Source of the DNA: Gloeobacterales cyanobacterium
Lineage (GTDB): Bacteria; Cyanobacteriota; Cyanobacteriia; Gloeobacterales; PMM-0068
DNA: 64,000 nucleotides
Direction of reading: 5' to 3'
NCBI GenBank assembly: GCA_038245785.1
Contig: JBBRSB010000001.1
Span: 256,001-320,000 of the forward strand
The first letter of the stretch is position 1. Each line of letters begins with the position of its first letter. Shown one piece after another: positions 20,602 through 36,861 of this stretch. Position numbers and translations under genes: made by a program. Under the pieces are notes generated by a model that had not been told where the DNA came from, did not search any database, and saw nothing but the letters and a program-made list of their open reading frames with translations.

Positions 20602-23600
20602 TCAGTTCACCTTTGCTTTGAAGCGCATGAACCCATAAGAGGTAGAAGGCGTGCCGGGGCCTGTAGACGTAGGAACCGTACCCGCGTTGACAAAGGCTGC
20701 ACCCCTACTATTGTTTGTCCCTGTACAGGCTGAATCAAAGGGACCTGGGTCTGCTATAAACTTTCCTTGATCGCTATCAGCAAGGTCCGTAAGGTTCGTA
20801 GGAGCACTAGAACCTATGGCCAGTTGGAGATTATTAGCTACATACGTACTATTGCCTGGAACGAAATCACAGAGTTTCACGTTGCCAGCATCCCTGCCCC
20901 CATCAGAAAGGAAGTAGATAGTGTATTCGACCTCATCATTGGGACGGGCATCACTGCGATTGATCACTCCTGGGAGAAAAGGACTGAAATTAGGATTGCT
21001 GCCTGGTCCAGGGTCTAGAGTCGCGGTGACCAAGGCGGGGAGATTGGGCCAGCCGGAAGCATTATCATCACTACTGCCTGTTCCACTGTTCACATCTATA
21101 TAGGTTGTGGCAAGGACATTGAGACCATCGCGGTTGATGGCAGTAATACGCTTTACCAGACGGACATGGGGAGGAGAGGCCGTAAAAGTTACGGTCGCAC
21201 TGCTCGTACCGCCAGTACCCCCGTTGCTTGAACTGATATTGCCAGTCGTGTTGTTGTAGATTCCTGCCGTTGGTGCGGTGACATTGACTAAGACGGTGCA
21301 GGTGCCACCGACTGTGATCGAACCACTAGAAAAGGAGATAGAGGCACTGCCTGCCGCTGGGCTGAAGGTTGGGGTGCCACAGCCGCTCGTGCTGGCATTG
21401 GGCGCTGTGGCTACGACCATCGCTCCGGGAGTGGTTGGGAAGGTGTCGCTGAATTGAACCCCGGTTAAAGTTGTGGATGCATTGGGATTGGTCAGCGCAA
21501 ATCGGAGGGTTGTCGGACTTCCTGCTGGAACCGAGTCAGGCAAGAAGGTTTTGGTAATGGTCGGTGGGGAAAGCGCGGTGAGACTGTCTGCTGCCGTACT
21601 CCCCGTACCGCCATTGGTCGAACTCACCGTGCCACTGATATTGCTGTAGCTTCCTGCGGTGAGCGCTACTATGTCCACCTTGACTGTGCAGGTGGCATTG
21701 GCGGCAAGGGTTCCTCCTGAGAAAGAGATAGAGAGACTGCCTGCCGTGGGCACGAAGGTGGGTGTTCCACAACCACTGGTACTGGCGTTAGGCGTAGGGG
21801 CCACTACCATAACTCCCGGAATCGTTGGGAACGTATCACTGAAGGCCACCCCCGTCAGGATGGTGGATGGATTCGGATTGGTGAGGGTGAACGTCAAGGT
21901 AGTAGGAACACTTATAGCCACTGAGTTAGGAGAAAAACTTTTGCTAATCGTCGGTGGGGCTGTACTTACTACCGTTAGCGTTGACGTTGCTGCTACTCCT
22001 GCTCCTGTGTTGGCGGTAGTGACTGTGCTACTGGTGTTGTTATAGGTGCCTGCGGTTGGGGCTGTTATATTCACGGTGACCGTGCAGCTTTCACCCCCGG
22101 CAAGCGTGCCCCCTGAAAAGGCAACAGACGCACTGCCTGCCGTGGGCGCGAAGGTCGGTGTTCCACACCCAGAAGAAGTACTCGCGGCAGGAGTAGAGGC
22201 CACTTTCATCGCTCCTGGAGTAGTCGGGAAAGTATCGGAGAAGGCAACGCTGGTTAAGGCTGTGGTTGCATTTGGATTGGTAACGGTAAAGGTCAGTGTT
22301 GATGTACCGTTTGTTCCAATAGTGCTTGGAGTAAAGGTTTTATTGAGGACGGCTGGGGCCAATGTAAACAAAGTCGCACTGGCTGTATTACCTGTGCCTC
22401 CGTTGGTAGAACTCACCGCGCCACTAATGTTGCTATAGGTTCCTACGGCTGGCGCGGTTATGTTGACGTTGACCGTGCAGGTGCCCCCACCCGCGATTGA
22501 GCCATTGGAAAATGAGATAGAAGTGCCGTTTGCGGCTGGGCTGAAAGTCGGAGTCCCACAGCCGCTTGTACTCGCACTGGGTGTAGCAGCGACTTTCATC
22601 GCTCCTGGCGAGGTGGGGAAAGTGTCAGAGAAAGCCACCCCCGTTAGGGTGGTAGAGGGATTTGGATTGCTAATCGTGAATCGGAGGGTGGTCGTCCCGC
22701 CTGGTGCAACGGCATTGGGAACAAAGGCTTTAGTGATAGAGGGTGGGACTACTGCCGATACAGTGAGCGTAGCGCTGGCAGTGGTTCCTGTCCCTGCGTT
22801 TGTGGTACTCACCCCACTACTCGTGTTGTTGTAGGTTCCTGCGGCGGGTGCCGTGATAGCTACACTCACCGTGCAGGTACCTCCAGCCACTATCGAACCG
22901 CCGGAGAAAGATATGGATGCGTTGCCTCCAGTTGGCGTAAAAGTTGGCGTACCACAGCCATTGGTCGTGGCATTGGGCGTTGCAGCCACTCCCATTGCTC
23001 CAGGCGTCGTCGGGAATGTATCGGTGAAGGCCACGCCTGTTAAGGGCGTTAATGTATTGGGATTGGTGAGCGTGAAGGTGAGGGTCGAGGTTCCTCCAGC
23101 CAGGATGGGAGATGGAGAGAAGGCTTTTGTGATACTGGCAGGAGTAAGCACCGCTAAAGTAGCTGTATTACTGACTGCTCCTGCTCCTACGCCCGTCTGC
23201 GTAGTCGTTGCACCGCTGCTGGTATTGGCGTAGCTGCCTGAAGTCGCTGCAGTAACAACCACGGTAATCGTACAGGTCCCTCCCGCAGCAAGATTGCCAC
23301 TATTTAAGCCGACATTACTATTGCCTGCGGCTCCCCCTGTGCTCGTTCCACCGCAGGTATTGCTTAGCGCGGGTGTGGAGGCAATTACTAACCCGGAGGG
23401 AAAGGTATCGCTGAAGGTTACCCCTGTGAAAGAGGTAGCTGTGGCATTGCTCAGCGTCAAGGTCAGGGTCGAAGTAGCATTAGGTGCAATCGGACTTGTA
23501 GAAAAAGACTTGCTGATGGTGGGCGCACCGACGCTATTAGCAATGGTGGTTGTGTTGTTTGTGAGACTCGGATCCAAAGTGGTGCTAGAAGCTGTAGCCG

Positions 23601-24687
23601 TATTACTGACGCTATTCGGGGCTACTGCTGTCACGGTAACGGTAATCGTGATGTCTGGCAAACTGGCACCGCTAACTACACTGGCCGTATTGTTCGTACA
23701 GGTAACTACCTGTAAAACAGCACTACAGCTCCAGTTGGTCCCTGTGCCGGAGACATAGGTGAGGCCGATAGGAAGCGTGTCTTTAACCGTAAAAGGACCG
23801 CTGGCACTCTGAGGACCGCTATTGCTAACTTTGAGGGTATAGCTGCCATTGGTTGACCGTGGAAACATAGGGCTGGAGGCAGTCTTGGTAATCGAAATGT
23901 CAGCAAATTTTGTGATGGAACCGAGGTCAGTTAGGCCAGCTACAGTACTACCAATTATCGAACTTCCACCACTCGGATTGATCCGAATAAGGTTGGTTCC
24001 AGAGGTACCGTATAGAAGGCTATCAGAGCCGTAGACCAAACCTGTGACGCTCGCGGCTGCTCCGGTGGCCGTTGCTATCGTCGGCAGGGAGGGAGGCGAA
24101 CCGCTGGGAGGAACTGAAATAGTTCCCTGTACTGCATACAAGTTGGTGCCAGTCACGATAAAAAGCTGGCCTGCAGATGAAAACGCCATGTCTCCACCGC
24201 CGTTCAAGGGGGGACCTGATACAGAAGCAACCAGGGTTGGGGCCCCTGTTGTTAAGTCAACGGTGTAAATATTATTTGTGGCCGGATCCATTGTGAATAA
24301 AATACCATCCGACCTAAACGTAAGCCTGTTGGTACCAAATCCGAGTGAGGCACTTAGGACAGTATTCAAGCCTGTAGTAGGGTCCCAGTAGGCAGGCTTG
24401 CCAGGACTGGCAGCCGAGTCAACATAATAGATTCTTCCTGTAACAGGGTCTCTAGCAATTCCATTGGTACTGTAAGAAAAAGTTCCGACTGAAGTAGTGG
24501 CTGCTGTACTTGGATCAATGGTGTAGATCGTAGTGCCATTAGTGCCGTAAATAATGTCATCGCGTGGAGGAGAAGCTGCTTCTACTATCCTCGCACTCAA
24601 GCCAAACCAGACCATCCATAAGGCAAGACAGACTAGGGAATGAGAAAAGAGTTTTTTGAGTGCACCTTGATTTCTAAAAAGAGGCAT
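20602..24687 (-). CDS. Large secreted adhesin: beta-propeller-like head, one DUF11 domain, six tandem Ig-like repeats, truncated C-terminal DUF11-like domain
   Basis: Signal peptide (...ARIVEA); propeller-like repeats (GGGDMAFSSAGQLF); six PxxxKxF...FS/TDTFP...CG...CT...YxN repeats; ends GFMRFKAKVN. Confidence 0.85.
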   Translation of the reverse strand: MPLFRNQGALKKLFSHSLVCLALWMVWFGLSARIVEAASPPRDDIIYGTNGTTIYTIDPSTAATTSVGTFSYSTNGIARDPVTGRIYYVDSAASPGKPAYWDPTTGLNTVLSASLGFGTNRLTFRSDGILFTMDPATNNIYTVDLTTGAPTLVASVSGPPLNGGGDMAFSSAGQLFIVTGTNLYAVQGTISVPPSGSPPSLPTIATATGAAASVTGLVYGSDSLLYGTSGTNLIRINPSGGSSIIGSTVAGLTDLGSITKFADISITKTASSPMFPRSTNGSYTLKVSNSGPQSASGPFTVKDTLPIGLTYVSGTGTNWSCSAVLQVVTCTNNTASVVSGASLPDITITVTVTAVAPNSVSNTATASSTTLDPSLTNNTTTIANSVGAPTISKSFSTSPIAPNATSTLTLTLSNATATSFTGVTFSDTFPSGLVIASTPALSNTCGGTSTGGAAGNSNVGLNSGNLAAGGTCTITVVVTAATSGSYANTSSGATTTQTGVGAGAVSNTATLAVLTPASITKAFSPSPILAGGTSTLTFTLTNPNTLTPLTGVAFTDTFPTTPGAMGVAATPNATTNGCGTPTFTPTGGNASISFSGGSIVAGGTCTVSVAITAPAAGTYNNTSSGVSTTNAGTGTTASATLTVSAVVPPSITKAFVPNAVAPGGTTTLRFTISNPNPSTTLTGVAFSDTFPTSPGAMKVAATPSASTSGCGTPTFSPAANGTSISFSNGSIAGGGTCTVNVNITAPAVGTYSNISGAVSSTNGGTGNTASATLFTLAPAVLNKTFTPSTIGTNGTSTLTFTVTNPNATTALTSVAFSDTFPTTPGAMKVASTPAASTSSGCGTPTFAPTAGSASVAFSGGTLAGGESCTVTVNITAPTAGTYNNTSSTVTTANTGAGVAATSTLTVVSTAPPTISKSFSPNSVAISVPTTLTFTLTNPNPSTILTGVAFSDTFPTIPGVMVVAPTPNASTSGCGTPTFVPTAGSLSISFSGGTLAANATCTVKVDIVALTAGSYSNISGTVSSTNGGTGSTAADSLTALSPPTITKTFLPDSVPAGSPTTLRFALTNPNASTTLTGVQFSDTFPTTPGAMVVATAPNASTSGCGTPTFSPAAGSASISFSSGSITVGGTCTVLVNVTAPTAGIYNNTTGNISSSNGGTGGTSSATVTFTASPPHVRLVKRITAINRDGLNVLATTYIDVNSGTGSSDDNASGWPNLPALVTATLDPGPGSNPNFSPFLPGVINRSDARPNDEVEYTIYFLSDGGRDAGNVKLCDFVPGNSTYVANNLQLAIGSSAPTNLTDLADSDQGKFIADPGPFDSACTGTNNSRGAAFVNAGTVPTSTGPGTPSTSYGFMRFKAKVN

Positions 24688-24905
24688 AAATCCAAAGCAA
24701 AAGGCAGCCTTAAGTTAGTGTGCCCAGTTATTCTCCGTAAATATACGGGTTAGAGTCTAGGCATAGATGCTTCAAGGCCCCTCTACTTTTATAGATGCGT
24801 TGAATTCATTTCTATCAATGCTTATAGAGGTTGAGTAGAGCAGTATACTTTGCAAGTCCCATTTTTCAGCCTATTATAGTCCCATAATATTTCTTCATTA
24901 GTGCC

Positions 24906-25115
24906 ATGCGTACTCACATTGATATCGACGATGTCTTGCTCGATGAAGCTCGCGCCCTAGGAGGCTATACCACGATTAAAATGGCGGTGAATGTTGCTCT
25001 AGTTGAGCATGTCAAGCAGTTAAAGCGACAGGAACTTCTACGCCTTCGTGGTCAGATGCATTGGCAAGGCGATCTAGACTTCCTAAGAGCTGAACGGAAA
25101 TCCAATGCTGGTTGA
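24906..25115 (+). CDS. vapB: VapB-family antitoxin
   Basis: MRTHIDIDDVLL RHH-type start, WQGDLDFLR tail; overlaps the PIN gene. Confidence 0.85.
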   Translation: MRTHIDIDDVLLDEARALGGYTTIKMAVNVALVEHVKQLKRQELLRLRGQMHWQGDLDFLRAERKSNAG

Positions 25116-25491
25116 TACCTCCGTTTGGATCGACTATCTGAATGGCTATGATTCTCTCCAAGCCGACCTTTTGGCTAAAGCAATCGCAGAGGATGCATCT
25201 ATTGTTTTATGTGGGGTAGTTTTGACTGAAATCCTACTGGGTCTCCCGGAAGACGAAGCCAGCCGTATTGAAAACCTCCTAGAAGCTTTTCCGCTGGCTC
25301 CCGAACCTGAGCGACAGGATTATTGCGCTGCTGCTCATCTTTACCGAACCTGTCGCAGCAAAGGCATTACGGTCCATTCTGTGATCGATTGTCTGATTGC
25401 CCAAATCTCCCTCAAGCATAATTACCCCCTGCTTTCTAAAGATCGAAACTTCGTGCAAATTGCACGGTATTTCCCCTTACAGCTTTGCTAA
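25105..25491 (+). CDS. vapC: VapC PIN-domain ribonuclease toxin
   Basis: LVDTSVWIDY, EILLG, IDCLIA, LLSKDRNF. Confidence 0.9.
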   Translation: MLVDTSVWIDYLNGYDSLQADLLAKAIAEDASIVLCGVVLTEILLGLPEDEASRIENLLEAFPLAPEPERQDYCAAAHLYRTCRSKGITVHSVIDCLIAQISLKHNYPLLSKDRNFVQIARYFPLQLC

Positions 25492-25547
25492 CCCACCTCT
25501 AGTTTCTCTGGATGCTATGATTTCTATAGAAACTAGAGAATATAGAA

Positions 25548-25889
25548 ATGGGTAAAGGAAAGACTATCTCTGCGTACACTGATGAGCAAACGGCGCTCAG
25601 AGTGGGCGAGTTGGCCACGCAGGAGCAGCGCAAACCAGCGCAGATTGCGGGCGCGGCGCTCAAATTGTATGTACAGTTGCCACCAGAAGCCCGCGAAGCC
25701 TTTCGGGCTATCGAACAGCAGGGAGGTCCAGCCCTCAAGTTGATGCGACGCGAAGTGACTCGCGCTTTGCTGAATGCTCAGTACGATTGGGCTAAGCAGC
25801 AGGCTATCCAGGCCATGAATGCTCCGGCGGTAGAACTTGAAAGTGAGGATGAGCTGTTGGCTGAGGCGGTGAGACTAACACGCTCGTGA
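25548..25889 (+). CDS. Putative antitoxin (RHH-like N-terminus)
   Basis: KTISAYTDE beta-strand followed by helices; GTGA overlap with the downstream PIN gene. Confidence 0.6.
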   Translation: MGKGKTISAYTDEQTALRVGELATQEQRKPAQIAGAALKLYVQLPPEAREAFRAIEQQGGPALKLMRREVTRALLNAQYDWAKQQAIQAMNAPAVELESEDELLAEAVRLTRS

Positions 25890-26473
25890 GCAGCATTCTA
25901 CGCCTGTGTCTGGATCTCAACATTTGGTGTGGAGACCTCATTGCTGAGCAGCATGGTCGCACGGATACAGCTACGCGCAAGCTTGTCGAGATGGTGCGTG
26001 CTGGGCAAGGTTCGCTTGGCCCCGTGCAACTAATCATTTCTTGGGGGATGATCAATCGGTTGCGCAAGGTGTATGTACAGGATCTACACATTCCAGCATC
26101 CGTGGCCGATACTTTACTGGGGGCGATTGCTGGCTATGCCGCTGTCGGACCGGCTGGGACTCCGCCGACCCTAACCTTGGGTGGTACGGGTGTGATACCG
26201 CTTGCTGATACTGAAGATGCCCATGTGCTAGAGACCTGCATAGCGGCCAAGGCCCATATCCTAGTGACCGCGAACTTTGCTGACTTTCTGACGGGCGGCA
26301 CAACAGGTGCGACTGTACTCGAAGCAGGTCGGATTGCTTTCTACACGGACCCTAGTGGTAGTCTGCTCATTGCCCATCCCTATGTGATGGCAGGCTGGCT
26401 CAGGCAAGGGCAGATCCTACTCCCTGACGGCAAGCAATGGGAGGTCAATTCACCTTCGCCAGGAAGCGAATGA
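25886..26473 (+). CDS. PIN-domain putative toxin (PIN_3-like)
   Basis: LCLDLNIW, EDAHVLETCIAAKAHILVTANFADF. Confidence 0.75.
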   Translation: MSSILRLCLDLNIWCGDLIAEQHGRTDTATRKLVEMVRAGQGSLGPVQLIISWGMINRLRKVYVQDLHIPASVADTLLGAIAGYAAVGPAGTPPTLTLGGTGVIPLADTEDAHVLETCIAAKAHILVTANFADFLTGGTTGATVLEAGRIAFYTDPSGSLLIAHPYVMAGWLRQGQILLPDGKQWEVNSPSPGSE

Positions 26474-29078
26474 AACCATAGGAATTGTTAGGTATTCCCG
26501 GAGCTGTTGCATTCGGTAGGGTATTTACTCCTTTCTCAATGTCAACAACCACCGCTCCATTAGTATTAGTTCCTGAACAGTTAGTGCTTGGAGTTGTCCC
26601 ACCCACGAAGAATTCACCTCGGTCTGCGTCACTGGCATTGCTCATATAGGTCGTTGTCAGACCAATTGCCATCGCTATGCCTGAATCGGCCCCTGGTAAA
26701 CCGCCATCTGTGGGTATCAAACCATTAAAAGTATTGGGACTAAAGGTATTGTTAGCAGGCACTAAGTCACAGACCGCGATCTTGGTGAGCGGGACATCGC
26801 CACTAGACAAGAAGTAGATGGTGTATTCCACATCGTCACCGGGTTTGACGATGCCGCCATCAATTGCTCCTTTTAGATAATTTGCAGGCCAGTTGGGTTC
26901 GTTGTCGTTCAGGTCAGCGGTTGTAGTCGGATCTACCACCGTTGTAATCGGGCTGGTATTGATAGCGGTGATTCGTTTGACTAGACTCAGTTTTGGATTG
27001 TTGGCAACGGGTACCGTCACTGTTGTGGGGTCAAGTGCGGTATCGTTACCCGTATTACTTTCCCCTCCACCCGATACGGTTGCATTATTGGTAACGCTAG
27101 AGGCTGCATTGGAAGCAACGTTCACTGTAAGCGTAATGGCTGGATAGCTAGCACCTGCGGCCAGGGCATCACTGCGGGTACACTGCACTTTTCCTGCCGA
27201 GGGAGTGTTGAGAGCACAGGTCCAGCCATTGATGGTACCCGTTGGGCCCGTTGCCGTCAGACCTGTAGGCAGGGTATCGACTACCGTTACAGTGCCACTG
27301 GTTGCTGCACCACCAGAGTTGGTCGCGGTAATCGTATAGGTTGCTCCAGTTTGTCCCTTCGTAAAGTTGCCCGTGTGGGTTTTGGTAATGGTCAGATCAG
27401 GAATACCGTTGATATTGGTGAGGTCCGTGGTGCTGTTGTTGGTAGTGGTGGCCTCTCCTCCACCAGCTACCGTTGCACTGTTGGTGACACTGGGGGCTGC
27501 ATTGGAAGCAACGGTCACCGTAATCGTAATGATTGGATAGCTAGCGCCTACGGCCAGGGCATCAGCGCGGGTACAGGTTAGGGTTGCCAAGGTGCAAGTC
27601 CAACCCGTACCACTGATGGCGGTTGCCGTCAGACCTGTAGGCAGGATATCGACTACTGTTACCGTTCCGTTAGTCGCTCCAGCACCAGAGTTCGTTGCCG
27701 TAAGTGTATAGGTTGCTCCTACTTGTCCTTGGGTGAAACTCCCGGTGTGGCTTTTAGTAATGGTCAGATCAGAATAGCCAATGGGAGTCGCTACCGTATT
27801 CGAGGTTGTGCTAGAAGGCGTATAGGGTAAATTTGTTGAAAAAGATACATTGTTCTGGATAGGCGTAAGAATAGTGCCCGCCAGCACTTTAAATGTCAGT
27901 GTTAAGGTGCCTGGGGTTATAGAGGTACAGGCTACGTTGGCACAAGTTCCCGCAGGGACGATTAGGTTAGACCAATCAATGGTCGAGCCCGAGAATATGC
28001 CTCCATTGGAAGCCGAGCTTACAACGTACGTAGAATTAGCCGGAATAGCATCTGAAACATTAACGTTATCGCTTGAAATACCCTTGTTCAACAGCGTAAT
28101 GGAGTAAGTAAGTTGCGTACCGGGGGTAACTGGCCCTAAAGGACTAACAGCTTTGCTGATGGTCGTATCCGGTGGTCCGCTGAATAGGGTATTGAAATAC
28201 GCTTGGCTGTCCTTCAGGCTATCGGCTACATCATTGATGGTGGCTTTGACATGATAGGTTTGCCCAGCTTGGACCAAGGCAGTAAAGTTTTTTAAGGGGA
28301 CGGTTCCACCGTCCATGGTGAACTCAGCACCAGCAGCAGTTGAATCGTTTGGAGCGGGACAGGCGATTAAAGTACACCCTGCTTTGAAAAAGAATGAGGA
28401 ATTAGTAGTTTCATTGATCGTATTAATCTGAATAGGAGTAGTTGTATTGGGCAAGCTGGCCAAATTCACCCCTGCTACAGGCAACCCTGGCCCGGTGATG
28501 ATGATGTCAATATTGTCGTTATAAGCTGTGCCAACATATTCCCGGTATTCCCAAGAGAAAAATGAATAGTTAAGCCCGAAACTGTTGTATTGAGGCTTTA
28601 CATCAAACTCAACAGTGGTAATGTCAAAGTTTGGGGAGCTTCCCCCTCCTCCTGTACTTACAGTCCTGCTATTCAAAGTTCCTGTGCGCAGTACGATGCC
28701 ATCACCGGGGAATCCACCCGCATTCGTAAATGTCCCAACACCACTTGTCCCAACACTAATACCCTTCCCCGATACGTTTGAGGTGATGGTGACATTAGAG
28801 ACTGTTGATCCTGATGCTGACCCGGCCAAAGTCGATTGCAAGGTGCTGGTAGTTATGGTCGGCGTAATCGACTGAGCAAAGACCGCGCTGTTACTTATGA
28901 TCATGCCAACAGAGAAAATCGCCAAAAATACCATTACCTGTGCGAACAACCCAGTACCGGACAACCGATGATTACTGCCTTTCTTCTTAGGAGAACGCAC
29001 CCCTGCCTCCAAGGCAGATTCGGAATTGTCATGCCAGGGTGTAAAGAATGCGCTTAGATGTTCGACTAGAAATTTCAT
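26445..29078 (-). CDS. Secreted adhesin: choice-of-anchor-L-like head, three DUF11 domains, truncated C-terminal DUF11-like domain
   Basis: Start taken at ATG 29078 (AGGA upstream; the longer ORF runs through a repeat); signal ...NSAVFA; GIVLRTG/FFSWEYREYVGTAYND head; DLTITKxHTG repeats; ends GFIRFLAKVN. Confidence 0.82.
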   Translation of the reverse strand: MKFLVEHLSAFFTPWHDNSESALEAGVRSPKKKGSNHRLSGTGLFAQVMVFLAIFSVGMIISNSAVFAQSITPTITTSTLQSTLAGSASGSTVSNVTITSNVSGKGISVGTSGVGTFTNAGGFPGDGIVLRTGTLNSRTVSTGGGGSSPNFDITTVEFDVKPQYNSFGLNYSFFSWEYREYVGTAYNDNIDIIITGPGLPVAGVNLASLPNTTTPIQINTINETTNSSFFFKAGCTLIACPAPNDSTAAGAEFTMDGGTVPLKNFTALVQAGQTYHVKATINDVADSLKDSQAYFNTLFSGPPDTTISKAVSPLGPVTPGTQLTYSITLLNKGISSDNVNVSDAIPANSTYVVSSASNGGIFSGSTIDWSNLIVPAGTCANVACTSITPGTLTLTFKVLAGTILTPIQNNVSFSTNLPYTPSSTTSNTVATPIGYSDLTITKSHTGSFTQGQVGATYTLTATNSGAGATNGTVTVVDILPTGLTATAISGTGWTCTLATLTCTRADALAVGASYPIITITVTVASNAAPSVTNSATVAGGGEATTTNNSTTDLTNINGIPDLTITKTHTGNFTKGQTGATYTITATNSGGAATSGTVTVVDTLPTGLTATGPTGTINGWTCALNTPSAGKVQCTRSDALAAGASYPAITLTVNVASNAASSVTNNATVSGGGESNTGNDTALDPTTVTVPVANNPKLSLVKRITAINTSPITTVVDPTTTADLNDNEPNWPANYLKGAIDGGIVKPGDDVEYTIYFLSSGDVPLTKIAVCDLVPANNTFSPNTFNGLIPTDGGLPGADSGIAMAIGLTTTYMSNASDADRGEFFVGGTTPSTNCSGTNTNGAVVVDIEKGVNTLPNATAPGIPNNSYGFIRFLAKVN

Positions 29079-29102
29079 TACGGACTTCCTGGGAACTTTT
29101 TT

Positions 29103-29256
29103 GGCCCCCCTGCCCCCCCTAGCGAAGCTTCCCGAAGGGTACCTTGGGGGGTTCTGAGGGAAAGTTTTATAAGAACTGAACTCTGCCCACCCATCACTGC
29201 TGTCTGGAGCTGGAGAGGGATGTTTCTCCCCCCAGAATTGGGGGGCCGGGGGGGCC
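29103..29256. repeat. C-rich/G-rich inverted-repeat element with a nested ~22 nt insert
   Basis: ggcccccctgccccccc...cttgggggg left arm; ccccccagaattggggggccgggggggcc right arm. Confidence 0.65.
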
Positions 29257-29355
29257 TGCTCTAATAGTTCCCTTATCGGGCTGCACTTCTGAGGTTTTGT
29301 CCTTAACTGGCACATAATTTTCATCTCACCTTGGCTTGGAAGCGAATTTCCTTTT

Positions 29356-32300
29356 TTAAGGAAGAGCGGGTTCTGCAAAATGTGCTGAGACAAGCGTCGC
29401 GGCAGAGGTGTCGAGCGGAGACAGTTCGTTCAGATACACAGGTCCAGAAGGGTGTGCGGGTGTAGGAACTGGAGCTTGGGAAACAGTCGGTGCCGCTGTT
29501 GCAGCATTGGGGGACTCTGTCTGAGGTAGAACAAGCGGTGGCGCTGCTGTTTTAGGCGGCTCTACGGGAGGCAAGGACTTGGCTAGCGGAGACTCCTGCA
29601 GTTGGACGGGAGCAACTTGTTGCAAACCAAAGCCATCAAAGAGTTCATTGACCTTGAGCGTGATGCCCAGATAAGGTCCAGCGGCATAGCGAGTACCACT
29701 GAAATCGCGGTCATTGTTGATACTGCCAAAGCTGTAACCACCCGCCAGGCGAAGATTTGGAGAGAGGTAGTAACCCAGCTCGGCAACGCCGCCGGTTTCG
29801 CTGTAGCCTGCAGTCGGTTGGCTAATCGAGCGAATTTCACCAACTAAGTCGGTATTGTAGCCCAAACGATAACGGGCACGTAGCTGAGCCAGAGAGACCA
29901 TGCTGGAAACAGAGAAATCTTGAGCAAGATTGGTCGTGCTGCTGCGTAGAGCGTACTTGCCGTAGAATTCCCACTGCCAATTCGGTGCATAAATTGCTTC
30001 CAAGGCCAAAGTATGGTCAGCAGAACCCGTACCGCTGCCAAACAAAATCGTGTTCGGAATGACCGATGGATTCTGGCGGTACTCATAGCGCAACAGGGCA
30101 TTGAAACTGTTGTCCTTGGGATTGCGATAGGCCAAGCCTAGTTTCAGGTCCTTCGTGTCCGCCAGTCCAGTCAAGAGTTGATTGGCAGAATTTGCCTGGT
30201 TGTAGCGCAGGAGGGCGGTCAGGGAAGGAGAAAGTTTTCCGGTGACGCCTGCGGTGATAACGGTGTTGTCCCCGGCTCCGCTGGTCCGCTTTTCATAGCG
30301 AGCACTGGCTTTGAAATCAGGATTTGCGGTGTATTCAAAACCGAGGCCGTAGTTGTCTCCGCTTTGGATTCCTAGAGCCGAAGCGCTTTGACCGATGGCA
30401 TAGGGTTGAGCAAACTGAAGCCCTGCGCCTGTATTGGCAAATACGTTACCCAAGACATGTTCATAGTTGAGATTGGCGGTGAGGCCCGCAGAGAGGACCA
30501 AGCGCTGGTTAAGGCCAATCGCTCCTTGGTTAGAAGGACCGTTGGCTCCACTGATCACAGAATAACGTCCGGTCAGAGTTGTATTTTCTGCGAGTTTGTA
30601 ATCGGCCAGGGTATCGAGACTGGTAATCGAGTTGCTGCCAAACTGTCCACCAGAGAAAAATTGCTGGTTCAGTTGGATTCTGATGCCTGGATAAACGGCC
30701 CACTCTAGACCAAGAATCGTGCGGTCAGGATAGCTCAGGTCCTGACGGGGAGAAAGGTTCAGCTCATTCTGCGCCCGGAAGGTTACTTTATCGGTAACCG
30801 GAACGGTCAGTCTGGAACGCAGCTGGCTGGAATTTCCAGCAATATCTGGCTGGAGGCGGTCTTCACGGGTCCGATTGAGCAAATCCACTTCTAATTTGCT
30901 GCTGCCCAGCTGTTGGGCGACGCCTACCGTAAAGGTAGTCAGACTATTGTCCACCTGCATGCCGGGGATGGCGACGGGACCAGGATTGAAGAGGTCCGTA
31001 AAGGTAAGTCGGGGTTGAGGTGCAATTCCCTTATTATCTTCCCGGTCGTACTGCACCTTTACGTTCGTAGTCGGGGAGACCTGAGCCGTCAGGTCCACGC
31101 CATAACGGGTTTGCCCTGGTACAAAACTAATGGTGGCATTATTGGCAAAGCCACTATCGGCAGCACGCAGATAGGCACGGCCTCTGATCTCTTTAGAAAG
31201 TTCTCCGTCGAATTCCACCCGAAAAGCGGAACCGCTGGCCGGACCGACCACTTCCGAATCATTTTGAGAATGGGCATATTCGGCAATTAGCTTGCTGTTG
31301 GGACCGAGCGAGAAGAGGGCATCCGCTCCATAGAGTTCAAACGTGCGGACTCCCTGGTTTTCCTTAACGTAGGTCGTTCCTAGCCAGCTTTCTCGGTTCA
31401 GTTCTTTGGAGAAGTGGTAACGGGCGCGAGCACCGTAAATATTGGCATTTTCTCTACTTTCATATTGATAAGTCGCTACTAAACGACGCACCAAAAGCCG
31501 ACCATCTTGGCCGATTTCTGTCCGCAAGAGGGGGCTGCGGAGCAAGATAGCGCCCCGGTCATAGTCAATGTCATAGTCTGTGCTGCGGGATAGGAGTTTG
31601 CGCTCGATCACCGTGCCGGGACGGTTGATTTCTTCTAGTTCGACGGCAAGCTGTTCACTTCCTGCCAAGAGCAGTCGGCGGGATACAAAGTAGTAGCCAC
31701 TGGTGCCATCGGGAGCAATCGTGTCGCGCTGGAAACCCTGGACATTGTCGCCATAGAGTCCGGTGAGCTGTAGGTTGCCAAAGTTGTAGTTGAGTTTGAG
31801 TCCATGCAGTTGACGGCTGAGGGCGGTCAATTGTTGATTGCTTGTCGAAAATTCTTTCGCCGTATCGTAATCGCCCCACAGAGCAGAGTCTTGGTTGCGT
31901 TCTAAACGAAGGAATAAGCTGTCTTTTGATTGAGCGGTGCGTTCCGTGCTGGAACTATCGCCAAATACGGGATAGGGCTGGTCGCAAGACTGGACATCTT
32001 GGTAGAGGCGACTACTGTCATTGCAATCCAGGTTAAGCGAGCGGCTGTTGTTGTAGGCTCCGGTGAAGAGCCAATCCCCAACTTTACCCGTAGCAAACAC
32101 GGCACTGCGCAGGTCTAGTTTGGTGGTGTTGTTGCGGTCAGGCGGTAGAAAGTCTCGGAAACTACGGTAGTAATCGGTTCCTTGAGCGCCCAGTCGTAAA
32201 TTAACTACGCCCGTGACGAGAGAAGGACGCAAACTGGTCTCGAATTCTAGCTGGGAAGAGGCTGCCAGGTCTGCCGCTCTGGCCTCAACCTTGACTACTT

Positions 32301-32949
32301 GCGCTTCTAAGTTAGAACGTAGATTGGCTACATACTGGCCCTTTTGGACTTTGACCTGGAACCCAGCCTGGTCGGGGTCTGCGTCGGTTCCGGTGAATTC
32401 GCCAGCGCTACTAGTCAGCGTCACCATCGCATCCCGGTCTGAACGATTGCCTTGCTCATCCAGAAGTTGGCCTTCTAGGGTAACGGTTGAACGACCATCG
32501 GCGGGGAGCTTAGCCTGTGCAGACTTGACCGTGATTTTCTTAGGGATACCGCGCACGAATACTTTGACAATGATTTTCTCTCCACCCTTAACCTGGGCCA
32601 CGAGCGTGTTCTCACCCTCTTTCAGGGAAAGGCCATACCAGGTTTGGGTGACCAGGTTGTTTTTGGTATCCGTTTCTGTACGCCCAATCAAGGTACGGTC
32701 TGCTGGGACATCATTGACCAGCAGATCTACGTCTTTGCCCACATCCAGCGGAAACTGTAAGACCACATTCGTTGCCGGAATGTCCACGATTGAATTCGGG
32801 GCAGGATTGAGAATTTTGACGACTCGGCTGGCTGCATTCGGCGGAGTGAGTTCCGTTTGGGCAATGGGCTCTGCTTTGACCACACAGCTAAAGCTCAAGC
32901 TCCCAGCCAGATAGAAGAGAATTCCTGTACGTACTACAGAAGATTTCAT
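29356..32949 (-). CDS. Large outer-membrane protein: periplasmic Ig/invasin-like domains plus a predicted beta-barrel
   Basis: Signal peptide; LPADGRSTVTLEGQLLD invasin-like motif; several hundred residues of alternating amphipathic strands (GARARYHF, YGLGFEY, LGLAYR, ELGYYL); Pro-rich tail. Confidence 0.75.
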   Translation of the reverse strand: MKSSVVRTGILFYLAGSLSFSCVVKAEPIAQTELTPPNAASRVVKILNPAPNSIVDIPATNVVLQFPLDVGKDVDLLVNDVPADRTLIGRTETDTKNNLVTQTWYGLSLKEGENTLVAQVKGGEKIIVKVFVRGIPKKITVKSAQAKLPADGRSTVTLEGQLLDEQGNRSDRDAMVTLTSSAGEFTGTDADPDQAGFQVKVQKGQYVANLRSNLEAQVVKVEARAADLAASSQLEFETSLRPSLVTGVVNLRLGAQGTDYYRSFRDFLPPDRNNTTKLDLRSAVFATGKVGDWLFTGAYNNSRSLNLDCNDSSRLYQDVQSCDQPYPVFGDSSSTERTAQSKDSLFLRLERNQDSALWGDYDTAKEFSTSNQQLTALSRQLHGLKLNYNFGNLQLTGLYGDNVQGFQRDTIAPDGTSGYYFVSRRLLLAGSEQLAVELEEINRPGTVIERKLLSRSTDYDIDYDRGAILLRSPLLRTEIGQDGRLLVRRLVATYQYESRENANIYGARARYHFSKELNRESWLGTTYVKENQGVRTFELYGADALFSLGPNSKLIAEYAHSQNDSEVVGPASGSAFRVEFDGELSKEIRGRAYLRAADSGFANNATISFVPGQTRYGVDLTAQVSPTTNVKVQYDREDNKGIAPQPRLTFTDLFNPGPVAIPGMQVDNSLTTFTVGVAQQLGSSKLEVDLLNRTREDRLQPDIAGNSSQLRSRLTVPVTDKVTFRAQNELNLSPRQDLSYPDRTILGLEWAVYPGIRIQLNQQFFSGGQFGSNSITSLDTLADYKLAENTTLTGRYSVISGANGPSNQGAIGLNQRLVLSAGLTANLNYEHVLGNVFANTGAGLQFAQPYAIGQSASALGIQSGDNYGLGFEYTANPDFKASARYEKRTSGAGDNTVITAGVTGKLSPSLTALLRYNQANSANQLLTGLADTKDLKLGLAYRNPKDNSFNALLRYEYRQNPSVIPNTILFGSGTGSADHTLALEAIYAPNWQWEFYGKYALRSSTTNLAQDFSVSSMVSLAQLRARYRLGYNTDLVGEIRSISQPTAGYSETGGVAELGYYLSPNLRLAGGYSFGSINNDRDFSGTRYAAGPYLGITLKVNELFDGFGLQQVAPVQLQESPLAKSLPPVEPPKTAAPPLVLPQTESPNAATAAPTVSQAPVPTPAHPSGPVYLNELSPLDTSAATLVSAHFAEPALP

Positions 32950-34424
32950 GGTCGTTTTTCCTTGTACGTGGGGGTGACGCCAAAATTCATCCGCACCAAA
33001 CCGCCTGGTTCTAAGTTCACGAAGCGAGACTGACTATTGAGTTCGATAAAATGGATATTTGGGGCGAAGGTATATCCCGGTAGGCTATTGAGGTCTAGAA
33101 CTCCGGTGTGGGGTCCAGAAGTCACATTGGCGACGGAGAACAGACCGTTGGGATCGGTGGTGATGCGGGTGCCATTGTCCATGAAGACCACGGCATTGGG
33201 CACTCCTGGTTCATCAGGCTGCTGTTCGCCGTCAAAGTTTTTGTCTGTAAATACTGTCCCGAGAATCAAACCCCGGTCGGAGAGGATACCAGGACGGATC
33301 TTGAGACGGTAGACAGCAGGGCCACCGCGTACTGGACGGTTGTTGCTTACCCGGCGACCGACTACGGAAGCTGAGTTTTGGCCTGAGCCGCGAATGGCAT
33401 CGGGCGTGAGGGTTGTGGCATAAGCAATGTTGAGACTCATGCCCACAGGAATGGTTGCACCTGTGGCATCTAAGAGGACGGTCGAGCCACTCCGGGTTGC
33501 CGTAACCGCTACGGGGCTACCTGAAACTTCTGCCCGTACGGAGTTTTGCAAGAAGTCAAAACCGAGGGGAAGAGTATCGGTTACCTGGATCGAATCTAGG
33601 GGAGAAGTAGATAAATTTTTGACCTCCACCCGATAGACAATCGTGTCTCCTGTTTCAGCGGTAGCACGATCTCCTATCTTGGTAATTTGGATTTCGTTGG
33701 GTTGGCAAACACTGGTATTGAGGCCAGTTATGAGGATCAATCCAACCGTTGCTGCATCGCCAATCGTAGTGGTATTGGTTGTGGAAACAGTCGGATTGCT
33801 GGTGATCGCTAAGGGATTATTATCTAGAGATGTAGCTTCATAGGTAACGTTGTTGCCCACACGGTTAGTAATTTTTAGAAGAATTCTGCGCTGGCTGTAA
33901 ATACCACCTGTAGGGGGATTGACCACTAGGATATAGGTTCTACCTGTATCCAATTGCCCTCTTCTTGCATCAAAGAGAAAGTTATAGTTGCCCTTGCCAC
34001 TATCAGACAGAAAGAAAGGATTACTGTTTTGCGTATTGGGAGCAGCTCCACCTGGAATGGTATTGCTCAAATCATCGGGTACTTCTGTGCGCGTCAGAGA
34101 TACTAGAGAGCCAAGGTCTGTGCCATTCGGCGTGTCATATAAACTAATACTGAATCCCTTATAGCTGCTCAGCGTTTCTCCATCACAACCTGTTACCCGG
34201 CCTAAGGGATCGATCAATTCAAAGCTGGAGCTATTCTGATTAGAAGCTAAACTGGCCTGAGCATAGCCCTGAGGATCACGATAGACCAGGCTCGCCTGAT
34301 TCCTGAAGGTCGTATTGGTCTGAGCCAAAACAGGTTGAGCTAGGGGTAACATTCCACCTACTAGTAATAGCTGAAAGCAACGTTGTAAGAAATCACTAGA
34401 GCGCTTTTTGCACAAGGAAGCCAC
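32946..34424 (-). CDS. Secreted DUF11 + SdrD-B-like protein (putative anchor/adaptor)
   Basis: Signal ...QPVLA; IQITKIGDRATAETGDTIVY DUF11; GTVFTDKNFDGEQQPDEPGV...TTDPNGLFS SdrD-B-like; 4 bp overlap with the barrel gene. Confidence 0.82.
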   Translation of the reverse strand: MASLCKKRSSDFLQRCFQLLLVGGMLPLAQPVLAQTNTTFRNQASLVYRDPQGYAQASLASNQNSSSFELIDPLGRVTGCDGETLSSYKGFSISLYDTPNGTDLGSLVSLTRTEVPDDLSNTIPGGAAPNTQNSNPFFLSDSGKGNYNFLFDARRGQLDTGRTYILVVNPPTGGIYSQRRILLKITNRVGNNVTYEATSLDNNPLAITSNPTVSTTNTTTIGDAATVGLILITGLNTSVCQPNEIQITKIGDRATAETGDTIVYRVEVKNLSTSPLDSIQVTDTLPLGFDFLQNSVRAEVSGSPVAVTATRSGSTVLLDATGATIPVGMSLNIAYATTLTPDAIRGSGQNSASVVGRRVSNNRPVRGGPAVYRLKIRPGILSDRGLILGTVFTDKNFDGEQQPDEPGVPNAVVFMDNGTRITTDPNGLFSVANVTSGPHTGVLDLNSLPGYTFAPNIHFIELNSQSRFVNLEPGGLVRMNFGVTPTYKEKRP

Positions 34425-34454
34425 TGCTTTTCACTCCGATAAGGCATGAAGAAA

Positions 34455-34484
34455 TTGGGGACACCCTAAGGAAAGTGCCCCCAA
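34455..34484 (-). terminator. Intra-operon stem-loop after the putative major subunit gene
   Basis: Minus strand ttgggggcac-N10-gtgtccccaa, 10 bp stem with one G-U pair, followed by tttctt. Confidence 0.6.
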
Positions 34485-34497
34485 CTGTCTGTTTTAA

Positions 34498-36861
34498 CTA
34501 GTTGATCTTGCGGCGGAAAGTAAACGTTTTGCTTACCCCTGGTCCTATAGGGCCAGTAATGGTATCTACATATTTGGTGACATCCGTAGTTGCGGTTGTC
34601 CCCGCTTGGTCTACGGCGGCAGTAGCGCCTGTGGCACCACTGAAGAAGGTAATCACGGTACCCGTTCCAGAATCACGAGCGGAGCCAAGCACATTGCTGG
34701 TATCAAAGGAACCATTGCTGTCGTTGTCTAGAGCCCAGTTGTTGCCAGTCAATCCACCGATGGTGCCGTTTTCGGTAACCACAATGTCTTTGGCATCCAG
34801 CACCGCATTACTTCCAGAACCTGCTTGCGCTTCTGTGATGTTCTTGTAGGTGATGTTGTACTCGATGATGCTTCCAGGAGGAACATTGCCCGTGATCGCT
34901 GTTCCAGCAGGAACTAGTTCTGTTGCGCCATCGGCCGCTAGAACCCGTGCCGTTTTAGCCAGGGTCATGAAACCGACATAAACCCGGTCAATGGAGGTGT
35001 TCTGAGCATCGGCAGCATCTAAGCCAGCAGGCCCTAGATCGATAAAGGCTGCAACAGGAACAGGAATACCGGTGAAGGTGGGCGCTCCAGCAGGTAGGTC
35101 AACGGATACCCCGTAGTTGGCAATTCCACCGACGGGAATATCTGCGGCAGGAATTACGACGGGGGTCCCGGTAGTGGCAGGAACTCCTCCGGTGTAGGTG
35201 TAGGTTGCGGATTGACTACCGTAGGAGATTGTCACCTTAGTACCATTGGGGATAGTCCCTGCTGCGACGGTAGCAGGTGCTAGGGATATAGGAGTCGTAG
35301 AGGTCCCTGAGTTTTGCACGGTACCAGTGAAAGCTGCAGGGCTAGGGTCGGTTCCGACTAATAGGGCGGCCTTGTTGGTGAAGTCATCGTTATTGCTCGT
35401 AGGACCGATGGCCGTGGGTGCGCCAGAAGGACCATTTAGAACAGTAGAAGGAGGGGCAATCGAGACGAGGTTCGCTTCCCCATCTGGACCTGTACCGGAG
35501 TTATTACCGGGGTCATTGCCGTCGGTCGCGCCTGGGACGCCCGTGTTGGTGGCTGGATCAAAGGGGTCAGCAATAGGACTGGGGCCATCGGTGAAGTTGC
35601 TAGGATTCTGGTCTCCAGATTCGTCGTAGACCAGGATAGTGCCACCGGGAGTGGTACCGAATATTTGAGCCAGGTTACGAACACTGGTACCTGCGGATGT
35701 AACGCCACTGGTAACGACTTGGAAGGAAAATCCGGTGACGGTGGTTCCTGCACTTACTGGGCCATTGTTGATAAAACCGACCCGAGCTACGGTAGTGCCA
35801 GGTACGGTAGTCCAGGCAGCAAGCGTGGAGTTAGGCTTAGTAGCCGTGAGATCTGAGGTGTAGACGGTGGTCCAGCCTGAGGGTGCAACAGGGGTACCTG
35901 CTATCAAAACTGTGCTTACAGGAACAGCATCCGAAACCAAAATCCGAGTGACGGTAGCGCCATCTACGGTGATAGGAGTACCGGCTAAGGGAGCGGCAGA
36001 AAATCCTGTGCTTCCTAGAGGGGCAGCACTGTCTACCCTCAGGCTCAAACTGTAGGTAACCTTGTCATCGGTGAGCGTGCTTGGTGTGCCATTGTCCGTA
36101 TAGGCACTGCCCTTGAGGATGGCCGCGAAGGCTTGAGGGTTACTGCCCACGGTAGCGGTCTGGGTCGCACTGGCTTCACGAGTACCGTTAATCGGAGCGA
36201 AGGCTGCATCGGCAGGAACGGTTCCATCTACGGTAAATACGTCTCCGGCTTGGGAGGTAGCTGCCGTCCGCTCTTGGTTCTGAGCATCTCCGGGGGTGTT
36301 ACCCAATTGAATGGAGATTGCTTGGCCTGTTGTTGCGCCAGGACTGACTTGGATAGGGACTCTTACTTTGATCGTGCCGCCTACAGGAATATCGGCGGTA
36401 GTGAAAGAACCACCGCTAATTGCGACAAACCCGCTGCCCGTATCGACAGACAAGCTCCCATTGATACTGCCAGGACCAGCGGTCACCGTGGCCAGGTTAG
36501 GAATCGTAAATCTTGTTGCGTCGTTACCTGTGTTGGTAATTACGTAGTCATAGTAAAGGACTGAGCCGGGAGTGATAGAGGCTCCGGCCACTGCTGGCGT
36601 AACACCAGCGGAAGTAAGCGTCATACCCGCAACTTCTGCGACGGTGACGGTGACAGTATTGGAAGTGGTAGGGGGCTGCGCTACGCCTGCGTTGTCAGAG
36701 TAGGTAGCTTGGGCCGTGTTGCTGATAGTAGTACCAGCCGTAGTGCCAGAAGCCCAAGCGGCGGGAGCCAACTGTAGGATACTACTCACGAGAAAAGTAG
36801 CGGCCAGCAAACCACTACTGTGACTCCTTGGTGTTTTGGATAGCTTTTCGAGAAGACGCAT
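34498..36861 (-). CDS. Secreted Thr/Gly-rich multi-Ig protein, putative major filament subunit
   Basis: Signal ...PAAWA; mature N-terminus SGTTAGTTISNTAQATY; C-terminal DUF11-like domain MTLAKT...PGSIIEYNITYKN ending FTFRRKIN. Confidence 0.82.
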   Translation of the reverse strand: MRLLEKLSKTPRSHSSGLLAATFLVSSILQLAPAAWASGTTAGTTISNTAQATYSDNAGVAQPPTTSNTVTVTVAEVAGMTLTSAGVTPAVAGASITPGSVLYYDYVITNTGNDATRFTIPNLATVTAGPGSINGSLSVDTGSGFVAISGGSFTTADIPVGGTIKVRVPIQVSPGATTGQAISIQLGNTPGDAQNQERTAATSQAGDVFTVDGTVPADAAFAPINGTREASATQTATVGSNPQAFAAILKGSAYTDNGTPSTLTDDKVTYSLSLRVDSAAPLGSTGFSAAPLAGTPITVDGATVTRILVSDAVPVSTVLIAGTPVAPSGWTTVYTSDLTATKPNSTLAAWTTVPGTTVARVGFINNGPVSAGTTVTGFSFQVVTSGVTSAGTSVRNLAQIFGTTPGGTILVYDESGDQNPSNFTDGPSPIADPFDPATNTGVPGATDGNDPGNNSGTGPDGEANLVSIAPPSTVLNGPSGAPTAIGPTSNNDDFTNKAALLVGTDPSPAAFTGTVQNSGTSTTPISLAPATVAAGTIPNGTKVTISYGSQSATYTYTGGVPATTGTPVVIPAADIPVGGIANYGVSVDLPAGAPTFTGIPVPVAAFIDLGPAGLDAADAQNTSIDRVYVGFMTLAKTARVLAADGATELVPAGTAITGNVPPGSIIEYNITYKNITEAQAGSGSNAVLDAKDIVVTENGTIGGLTGNNWALDNDSNGSFDTSNVLGSARDSGTGTVITFFSGATGATAAVDQAGTTATTDVTKYVDTITGPIGPGVSKTFTFRRKIN

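Follow-up and report, generated by a model that had tools for sequence, protein, structure and literature searches.

Within a 64,000-nucleotide stretch of the genome of a Gloeobacterales cyanobacterium (GenBank assembly GCA_038245785.1, contig JBBRSB010000001.1, positions 256,001 to 320,000; hereafter the window), a cluster of five genes between positions 20602 and 36861 encodes what we consider, with a probability of about 0.6, to be a modular tip-shaft-anchor surface fibre, whose subunits would complete one another in trans through a split immunoglobulin (Ig)-like domain of the CnaA-like (DUF11/CLIPPER) type. A first-pass annotation had put forward the core of this idea, namely a split DUF11-like domain whose last hairpin is carried by other subunits, in a logic linked to an outer-membrane barrel. 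Comparative evidence strongly supported it: the terminal placement of the two halves, the existence of unsplit forms, a split triad of residues, a recurrent gene order, the fusion of a 492-residue (492-aa) subunit with the barrel, and the model of the barrel itself. At the level of sequence, the pattern of donor and acceptor modules is far beyond chance. Trans complementation, polymerisation of a 787-aa subunit into a long shaft, covalent locking and export via the barrel are what we infer in addition.

All five open reading frames (ORFs) are on the minus strand at the positions first annotated, and all five products carry Sec-type hydrophobic leaders with small-x-small sites, read by eye (AWA/SG, VLA/QT, VKA/EP, VFA/QS and VEA/AS, the slash marking the site). 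The 787-aa subunit (34498..36861), a candidate shaft protein bearing both a donor and an acceptor module, was defined from its ORF, its translation and a match to the Pfam family DUF7925 (PF25546; residues 246-423, E 2.7e-57; 194 bits, gathering score 26.5). Its donor hairpin, delimited with a hidden Markov model (HMM) and by conservation, spans residues 38-75 (36637..36750, minus strand) and holds Asn48 and the pair Ser67-Asn68. Its C-terminal acceptor domain, delimited by conservation, spans residues 618-787 (34501..35010, minus), and contains both Lys636 and Glu697; the F-like strand KTFTFRRKIN forms its end. The 492-aa subunit (32946..34424) has a donor module only and is, from its translation, Pfam matches and synteny, a candidate basal anchor; its hairpin, recognized by conservation and a profile match, covers residues 35-64 (34233..34322, minus; TNTTFRNQASLVYRD...LASNQ) and is followed by a Pfam DUF11 match at 245-351 and an SdrD_B-like match at 390-439. 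The stop of this gene overlaps by 4 nucleotides the start of the barrel gene (29356..32949), which encodes a 1197-aa predicted outer-membrane protein composed of two Ig-like domains, a giant beta-barrel and a Pro-rich disordered tail, as seen with AlphaFold2 (AF2), Foldseek and VIA-align.

The two remaining genes encode putative adhesins that have an acceptor module only, at their C-terminus. The 877-aa adhesin (26445..29078; Pfam, NCBIfam, HMM) combines a choice-of-anchor L domain, found with NCBIfam, with three DUF11 repeats; in its acceptor domain, the last 188 aa (26448..27011, minus), the alignment showed the Lys of LVKRIT, the Asp of a CD motif, a Cys pair and the ending YGFIRFLAKVN. The 1361-aa adhesin (20602..24687; Pfam, HMM) has an N-terminal region without a Pfam match, DUF11 and six DUF7933 repeats, and an acceptor domain in its last ~190 aa (20605..21174, minus), where positions 14-227 of the adhesin-type acceptor HMM match residues 1160-1370 of the stop-to-stop frame. 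Three of the proteins, the 492-aa subunit and the two adhesins, gave Pfam matches to DUF11 (PF01345), their internal repeats scoring above the gathering score (39.8 bits in the 492-aa subunit, 89.7 and 127.3 bits in the adhesins), and the ITK...VxD...NxA motifs of complete repeats were visible in the translations. The strings on which the split had been proposed were likewise all present: the chain ends FTFRRKIN, FIRFLAKVN and FMRFKAKVN, each before a stop, as well as AGTTISNTAQATY...TTSNTVTVTV, TTFRNQASLVY...LASNQ and LTLTFKVLAGTILTPIQNNVSF...TTSNTVATPI.

Two sets of sequences were used for comparison. Placement of the 787-type modules was counted from HMM matches over 277 stored homologues, and gene content from the best 79 loci of the 378 barrel relatives in a species-genome collection, to which we added a second cluster of the window genome, on contig C11. 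The chain ends indeed lack the hairpin: the 787-aa protein and both adhesins keep the first-strand Lys and the acidic residue and stop after an F-like strand. In the 787-type acceptor, K636, an E or D at position 697, and R784 were each present in 298/298 sequences. The domain was terminal, with a tail of at most 20 aa, in 246 of 258 matches; seven others had tails of 22-74 aa without a hairpin, and five had 418-1830 residues beyond it. The adhesin bodies were highly diverse and had in common a C-terminal domain of ~190 aa. This domain was recovered in 81 ORFs, three of them cut by the locus end, and it ended 0-2 residues before the stop in 78/78 complete ORFs; in an alignment of 80 sequences, K39, D109, C108 and C172 were invariant. 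The Asn with which the first-pass annotation closed these domains did not hold up as a conserved feature, the last residue in the 81 ORFs being mostly K, otherwise N, D, KP or DE.

These acceptor domains are not complete DUF11/CLIPPER members, as they gave partial, sub-threshold matches and their chains end at the F-like strand. Profile alignment with hhalign matched them to DUF11 over the B-to-C' strands only, and a PDB sequence search with the adhesin acceptor profile returned no match at E<=10. Their endings, '...PG.S.TFTF.RK(I/V)N' or '...YGF.RFRAKV', resemble the F strand of the window's complete repeats ('...GASYPIITITVTV').

The donor hairpin has the core motif I-x-N-x-A...S-N-x-V directly after the signal peptide, with GT.AGT.ISNTA.ATY.D...TSNTV.VTV as the pattern of the 787 type. 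Conservation was near complete in this type (N48 297/298, S67 298/298, N68 296/298) and high in the 492 type (N42 78/79, A44 75/79, Y48 78/79). The profiles of the two types aligned with each other at a probability of 86.6% (hhalign, E 4.5e-6), and we therefore consider them homologous. The 787-type hairpin started at or before residue 100 in 252 of 256 HMM matches, and the four others sit behind an internal acceptor domain; among locus ORFs, the median start was residue 40, and a single hairpin of 173 started past residue 120. The domain that follows the hairpin in the 787-aa protein, D1 (residues 75-239), aligned over its full length to solved single domains that do not include a hairpin (TTHA1873, Z 9.8).

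The allocation of modules among subunits was as first described: by HMM, the 492-aa protein has the donor only, the 787-aa protein both donor and acceptor, and the adhesins the acceptor only. Across the loci, 79 492-like ORFs were donor-only, 80 787-like ORFs had both modules, and 70 adhesins were acceptor-only. Six 787-like ORFs departed from this scheme, five with the donor only and one with the acceptor only. Three of them look like fragments in locus L064 (two pieces of a single broken frame, one donor-only and the other acceptor-only, and another donor-only ORF), and the three others, all donor-only, run off the locus end. Nine adhesin-type proteins had both modules. These nine, encoded by second or third adhesin genes in loci L015, L021, L022, L026, L032, L033 and L034, combine a 787-type hairpin with an adhesin-type acceptor and could be extra shaft or adaptor subunits.

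The decisive evidence that the two termini are halves of one domain is comparative and came from unsplit forms, profile comparisons alone being weak. All five proteins with at least 418 aa past the acceptor (P0130, P0144, P0152, P0186 and P0245) run from the acceptor directly into the hairpin and then into D1, without a signal peptide at the junction. The hairpin started at +1, +1, +2 and +7 by HMM, these being the four matches out of 256 that are not N-terminal; in the fifth protein, P0152, the hairpin has an insertion and was located by eye and by a profile match. Two unsplit forms are encoded on 4.15- and 7.3-Mb records named after isolate strains, Geminocystis sp. NIES-3709 and Kovacikia minuta CCNUW1. 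Two contain RTX repeats, and others Calx-beta, cadherin or DUF4347 domains; they look like giant one-chain adhesins. In the ESM Atlas, the unsplit unit was nearest to DUF11/DUF7507 clusters at 0.90-0.91, which we take as a lead only.

As judged from conservation, Lys636, Glu/Asp697 and the donor Asn48 form a near-invariant set that would correspond to an isopeptide-type triad split over two chains. The distance from the end of the F strand to the Asn, counted across the split, was 11-12 residues, vs 10 in the window's complete DUF11 repeats ('SVTNSATV' strand). In the unsplit forms, the acid and the Asn were kept in 5/5, and the Lys was replaced by Thr in 2/5, a change never seen in 298 split proteins. 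This fits a Lys that mainly serves to lock separate chains, with the reservation that only a few sequences, related to one another, were counted.

The first-pass annotation had suggested a gene-neighbourhood survey for the donor/acceptor logic, and the module pattern recurred in ~80 loci and in the 277 homologues. The recurrent gene order in the ~80 cyanobacterial loci was 787, a small protein in most cases, 492, barrel and one or more adhesins. Where the flank was long enough, a 787-like gene lay upstream and opened the cluster (76/76 loci). The 492-like gene adjoined the barrel gene in 79/80 loci, with a 4-nucleotide overlap in 64, and at least one adhesin with an acceptor domain followed downstream in 61/68. 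The window genome itself has a second, complete paralogous cluster (contig C11, 110600-122032) with an 870-aa 787-like protein, the small protein, a 498-aa 492-like protein, a 1227-aa barrel and a 903-aa adhesin with an acceptor domain. When the whole 5.0-Mb genome was scanned with the HMMs, the hairpin was found in four ORFs and acceptor domains in five, all of them in the window cluster or the C11 cluster.

The 79 best barrel loci bear cyanobacterial titles, the exceptions being L010 (Gracilibacteria), L013 ('uncultured bacterium') and L046 (a Leptothoe). Homologues of the 787-aa protein numbered more than 1271 at E<=0.001, and the named source organisms were all cyanobacteria among the matches listed; where the proteins had a name, it read 'hypothetical', 'DUF7925' or 'beta strand repeat'. 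Searching 1.84 billion representatives with a profile gave 1490 homologues of this family, and of 301 genomes sampled from the phylum, 32 had DUF7925. We also noted a typical cyanobacterial cluster in L010, a Candidatus Gracilibacteria metagenome-assembled genome, and the name uncultured Arsenicibacter sp. on the protein P0144. These non-cyanobacterial labels may reflect binning errors or transfer.

The 1197-aa protein had been proposed to be a membrane barrel, and structure prediction bore this out at moderate model confidence: the model has at least 32 long strands, and the top non-Ig structural matches were all outer-membrane barrels. The AF2 model placed Ig-like domains at ~45-237 and the barrel at ~246-1100, with 32 antiparallel strands of at least 10 residues between 485 and 1100 and about five earlier ones. 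Foldseek retrieved Deinococcus SlpA, SprA of the type IX secretion system (T9SS), MtrB, LptD and TonB-dependent receptors. With VIA-align, the model scored Z 17.2 against FimD (root-mean-square deviation 6.4, 319 aligned residues), 15.0 against PapC, 15.3 against SlpA and 15.9 against OccK. Because porins and SlpA score close to ushers (Z 15-16), we regard 'membrane barrel' as supported and 'usher-like' as a hint. At the sequence level, the Pfam matches were weak and limited to Porin_4 (E 4.6e-6) and Invasin_D3, and the ESM Atlas gave only unnamed or auto-named outer-membrane-like clusters.

Longer relatives of the barrel included Moorena proteins of 2100-2500 aa, a JGI protein of 2245 aa with an OmpA domain (P0267) and a 2475-aa protein, P0277. 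Residues 1496-2349 of P0277 are collinear with barrel residues 283-1099 (E 3e-34), and upstream of this region lie segments aligning with residues 245-401 and 405-483 of the 492-aa protein, that is, its DUF11 and SdrD_B-like parts (E 6e-9 and 4e-7). The fusion in P0277 preserves the order of the two translationally coupled genes, which argues for the 492-aa protein and the barrel acting together as a single unit at the base, its N-terminus directed away from the barrel. P0277 also has an N-terminal passenger-like region and a C-terminal coiled-coil-like tail.

A further component emerged from the relatives. In 72/75 loci, a ~190-aa secreted DUF11-like protein is encoded between the 787-like and 492-like genes; it is missing from the window cluster and from L005, L056 and L076, and is present in the C11 cluster (L003, 13331-13882). 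It ends at an F-like strand like the acceptors and keeps the Lys in 72/72 sequences. The position of the acid is Gln in 70/72, Glu being found only in the C11 copy of the window genome. Because Gln replaces the catalytic acid in 70 of 72 cases, this protein is a candidate chaperone or cap; one may speculate that it is a non-covalent hairpin cap or chaperone, or else a minimal tip. The first-pass annotation had stated that no chaperone, sortase or prepilin peptidase accompanies the system. This was right for the window cluster, as judged by Pfam and the neighbouring genes, but most relatives do encode a candidate chaperone or cap.

Several observations weighed against a fibre built from split domains. 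The Pfam matches of the acceptor domains stayed below threshold (DUF7507, E 0.0028, positions 15-95 of 105; DUF11, E 0.008, positions 10-54 of 114), and Pfam found no family at E<=10 in the unsplit acceptor-hairpin unit of P0130. The hairpin was only weakly similar to the G-strand region of the complete adhesin DUF11 repeats (local hhalign, E 0.0098 and 0.23), and hhalign gave no match between it and the DUF11 of the 492-aa protein itself. Covariation between the hairpin and other domains gave no usable signal, either by mutual information (188 sequences) or by mean-field direct coupling analysis (298 sequences), the output being dominated by clade and gap noise. The adhesin acceptor contains a near-invariant Asn176 (NTNGAVVV), which could in principle serve in cis. 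In the AF2 monomer of the 787-aa protein (mean predicted local distance difference test score, pLDDT, 78.4), the hairpin reached a pLDDT of 82-91, and in such a model packing in cis or on D1 could account for this value. The barrel model is of low confidence (mean pLDDT 64.6, predicted template modelling score 0.40), and its usher match lies within ~2 Z of ordinary porins. Finally, 7/68 loci had no acceptor adhesin within the downstream flank.

A working mechanism for the proposed fibre would be as follows. Once exported by Sec, an incoming subunit would insert its N-terminal hairpin, as the missing G and H strands, into the C-terminal domain of the preceding subunit. This would set the donor Asn48 (Asn42 in the 492-aa protein) beside Lys636 and Glu697 of the acceptor (Lys and Asp in the adhesins), and a spontaneous intermolecular Lys-Asn isopeptide bond would then lock the joint. 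The polarity would run from the adhesin at the tip (acceptor only), through a shaft of n copies of the 787-aa protein (both modules), to the 492-aa protein at the base (donor only) and the barrel. The C-terminal CnaB/SdrD_B-like domains of the 492-aa protein would be located at the barrel or inside it. With its 32 or more modelled strands, the barrel would anchor the fibre and probably also let it pass through; as in chaperone-usher pili, subunits would be added at the base. The likely role of such a fibre would be adhesion or aggregation. In its fullest form, this proposal makes the cluster the cyanobacterial version of an undescribed pilus class of double-membraned bacteria, one that has no classical chaperone, hands a split CLIPPER-type hairpin to the preceding subunit, welds it through a spontaneous Lys-Asn bond, and uses a dedicated outer-membrane barrel of 32 or more strands both for its secretion and as its root. 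We advance this form tentatively, as our doubts slightly outweigh our confidence in it.

Other arrangements of the same parts have to be considered. The split joints might build a short tether instead of a pilus, an adhesin being linked through one 787-aa adaptor to the 492-aa protein and the barrel, which would amount to a multi-chain fibrillar adhesin. P0277, a single-chain passenger-stalk-barrel protein of this very architecture, speaks for such a tether, as does the fact that unsplit forms belong to RTX-type giant adhesins. However, the 787-aa protein has a matching donor and acceptor, so the sequence sets no bar to self-addition. The 787-like gene, moreover, comes first in the cluster in 76/76 loci, and genes for major subunits are often the first of their cluster. 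We find the tether unlikely, while taking it seriously.

Explanations that do without trans completion fared worse. The C-terminal domains could be complete as they stand and, like those of the T9SS, be sorting or export signals, here read by the barrel; the hairpin would then be part of the first domain of its own protein or pack on it. A strictly C-terminal location, the high pLDDT of the hairpin in the monomer model, its weak similarity to DUF11 G/H strands, and the conserved Asn176 of the adhesin domain would all suit such signals. Against them, the internal acceptors of RTX-repeat proteins always stand directly before a hairpin, D1 is complete from residue 75, the 492-aa protein has the hairpin without such a domain and the adhesins the reverse, and Lys636, acid 697 and Asn48 are kept as a set. 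We deem this explanation very unlikely. Still less credence goes to closure in cis, by which the hairpin would complete the C-terminal domain of its own 787-aa chain and the termini of the adhesins and of the 492-aa protein would have unrelated roles. Both halves do occur on one chain, but 70 adhesins have an acceptor without a donor and 79 492-like proteins a donor without an acceptor; four tandem Ig-type domains would, we suppose, have to bend into a ring; and D1 comes after the hairpin in the unsplit forms, which assigns the hairpin to the next unit.

Some observations concern the annotation of the cluster and its surroundings. The ORF of the 877-aa adhesin reaches 29393 (26445-29393) and counts 982 aa from the first TTG, the ATG at 29078 giving 877 aa; the 105-codon upstream extension (29079-29393, minus strand) runs to this TTG and overlaps the end of the barrel gene. 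Even in the short form, ~50 aa precede the hydrophobic leader, which is unusually long for an N-region, so that the ATG and the TTG are both candidate starts. A plus-strand insert at 25105-26473 separates the two adhesin genes and contains a PIN ORF (128 aa), a 113-aa ORF and a PIN_3 ORF (195 aa); the PIN-domain ORFs look like toxin-antitoxin-type cassettes. The genes flanking the cluster are unrelated housekeeping genes (Pfam, 13 neighbouring ORFs). At 17834-18862 on the plus strand lies a gene for a histidine-specific S-adenosylmethionine-dependent methyltransferase (Methyltransf_33, E 4.7e-116), which is unconnected with the cluster. Scans for promoters and terminators gave counts no higher than in shuffled controls.

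The first-pass annotation knew of no description of such a system, and none was found in the literature that was accessible to the search. In the same literature, DUF7925 came up in one paper only. If the proposal is true, diderm bacteria would have a further route of pilus or fibre assembly, built from components without homology to those of the chaperone-usher, type IV, type V, curli or sortase systems. Spontaneous intermolecular isopeptide locking, reported so far for the monoderm BsaA and for archaeal threads, would then also occur on a diderm surface fibre, and many cyanobacterial proteins now called 'hypothetical' would gain a function (the 787-aa family with more than 1271 clusters, and 378 barrel relatives). 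Such fibres could matter for the formation of mats, biofilms and symbioses, and the split domain could be put to use in covalent protein ligation, as a natural counterpart of split-isopeptide ligation tools.

Among known systems, chaperone-usher pili (FimH-FimG-FimF-FimA-FimI, with FimC and FimD) have an incomplete Ig-like fold completed by the N-terminal extension of the next subunit; the sequences and the unsplit forms speak for an analogous split in the proposed fibre. In both, the tip adhesin would be acceptor-only, the shaft subunit would have both modules and the terminator would be donor-only, and a dedicated outer-membrane barrel is present, FimD being the best VIA-align match of ours, not clearly above porins. 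The differences are that the donor here is a two-strand hairpin of a CnaA-like/DUF11-type domain, that the conserved Lys/acid/Asn triad suggests a covalent lock, and that the AF2 model of the barrel shows 32 or more strands where an usher has 24. No PapD-type chaperone family was found by Pfam in the five proteins and 13 neighbouring ORFs, the small protein of relatives being DUF11-like and not PapD-like, and the 1197-aa protein had no Pfam Usher match.

Other pilus types were further away. There is no LPXTG motif or membrane anchor, as in sortase pili (the chains end in ...KIN or ...KVN), and no sortase family among the neighbours. No leader site has a Cys at +1, as in the type V (FimA/Mfa) pili of Bacteroidota, and no FimA/Mfa Pfam family was found. 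Pfam and NCBIfam detected no TasA-type family, as in TasA/BsaA fibres, the domains resembling CnaA-type pilin domains instead. The CT pilus (MrpC) of Microcystis was considered and ruled out, as it has a 12-kDa pilin of another fold and another gene cluster. P0277 is alike in having a homologous barrel preceded by 492-like DUF11 and SdrD_B-like parts, and unlike in that anchor and barrel are one polypeptide, whereas in the window they are encoded by two translationally coupled genes.

The domains themselves have close relatives. Domain 241-470 of the 787-aa protein matched the Gram-positive pilins BcpA (Z 9.9), SpaD (Z 9.3) and RrgB (Z 8.4) as well as the CLIPPER structure 9ifr (Z 9.4), and the domains of this protein also resembled PorA-N/CooA. 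Gram-positive pilins differ in that the cluster has neither a sortase nor an LPXTG motif. A 2025 survey of intramolecular isopeptide domains created DUF7925, DUF7927 and DUF7933 and renamed DUF11 'CLIPPER' (PMC12617251). It describes the CLIPPER triad as a first-strand Lys, an Asp and an Asn of the penultimate strand, with an intramolecular bond and the domain contained within one chain. DUF11, DUF7925 and DUF7933 all figure in it, which places our proteins in the same superfamily; unlike the domains described there, for which only intramolecular bonds are given, the terminal domain here stops after the F strand and has its last hairpin on another polypeptide.

The closest parallels in mechanism came from elsewhere. 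In the accessible portion of a review of bacterial surfaces from 2026, sortase pili are the only case for which intermolecular isopeptides are mentioned. BsaA, a TasA family protein of Clostridium perfringens, is presented in a preprint as assembling by 'donor-strand exchange and lock', the donor N35 forming an intermolecular isopeptide bond with the acceptor K74, assisted by E56, after strand insertion (bioRxiv 10.1101/2024.11.04.621531). As described there, an Asn on the N-terminal donor faces a Lys and a catalytic Glu on the acceptor, which is analogous to the N/E/K set found here. Unlike our system, BsaA has a TasA-type fold, a monoderm host and the SipW signal peptidase, without an outer-membrane barrel, and we saw no sequence relationship in the present analysis. 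The archaeal thread of Sulfolobus acidocaldarius is likewise reported to combine donor-strand complementation with intersubunit isopeptide bonds (PMC9715654); it differs in being archaeal, in having no outer membrane or barrel, and in belonging to another subunit family. Set beside these systems, the proposed fibre would be a variant of donor-strand-built, isopeptide-locked fibres, and possibly a new pilus class for diderm bacteria.

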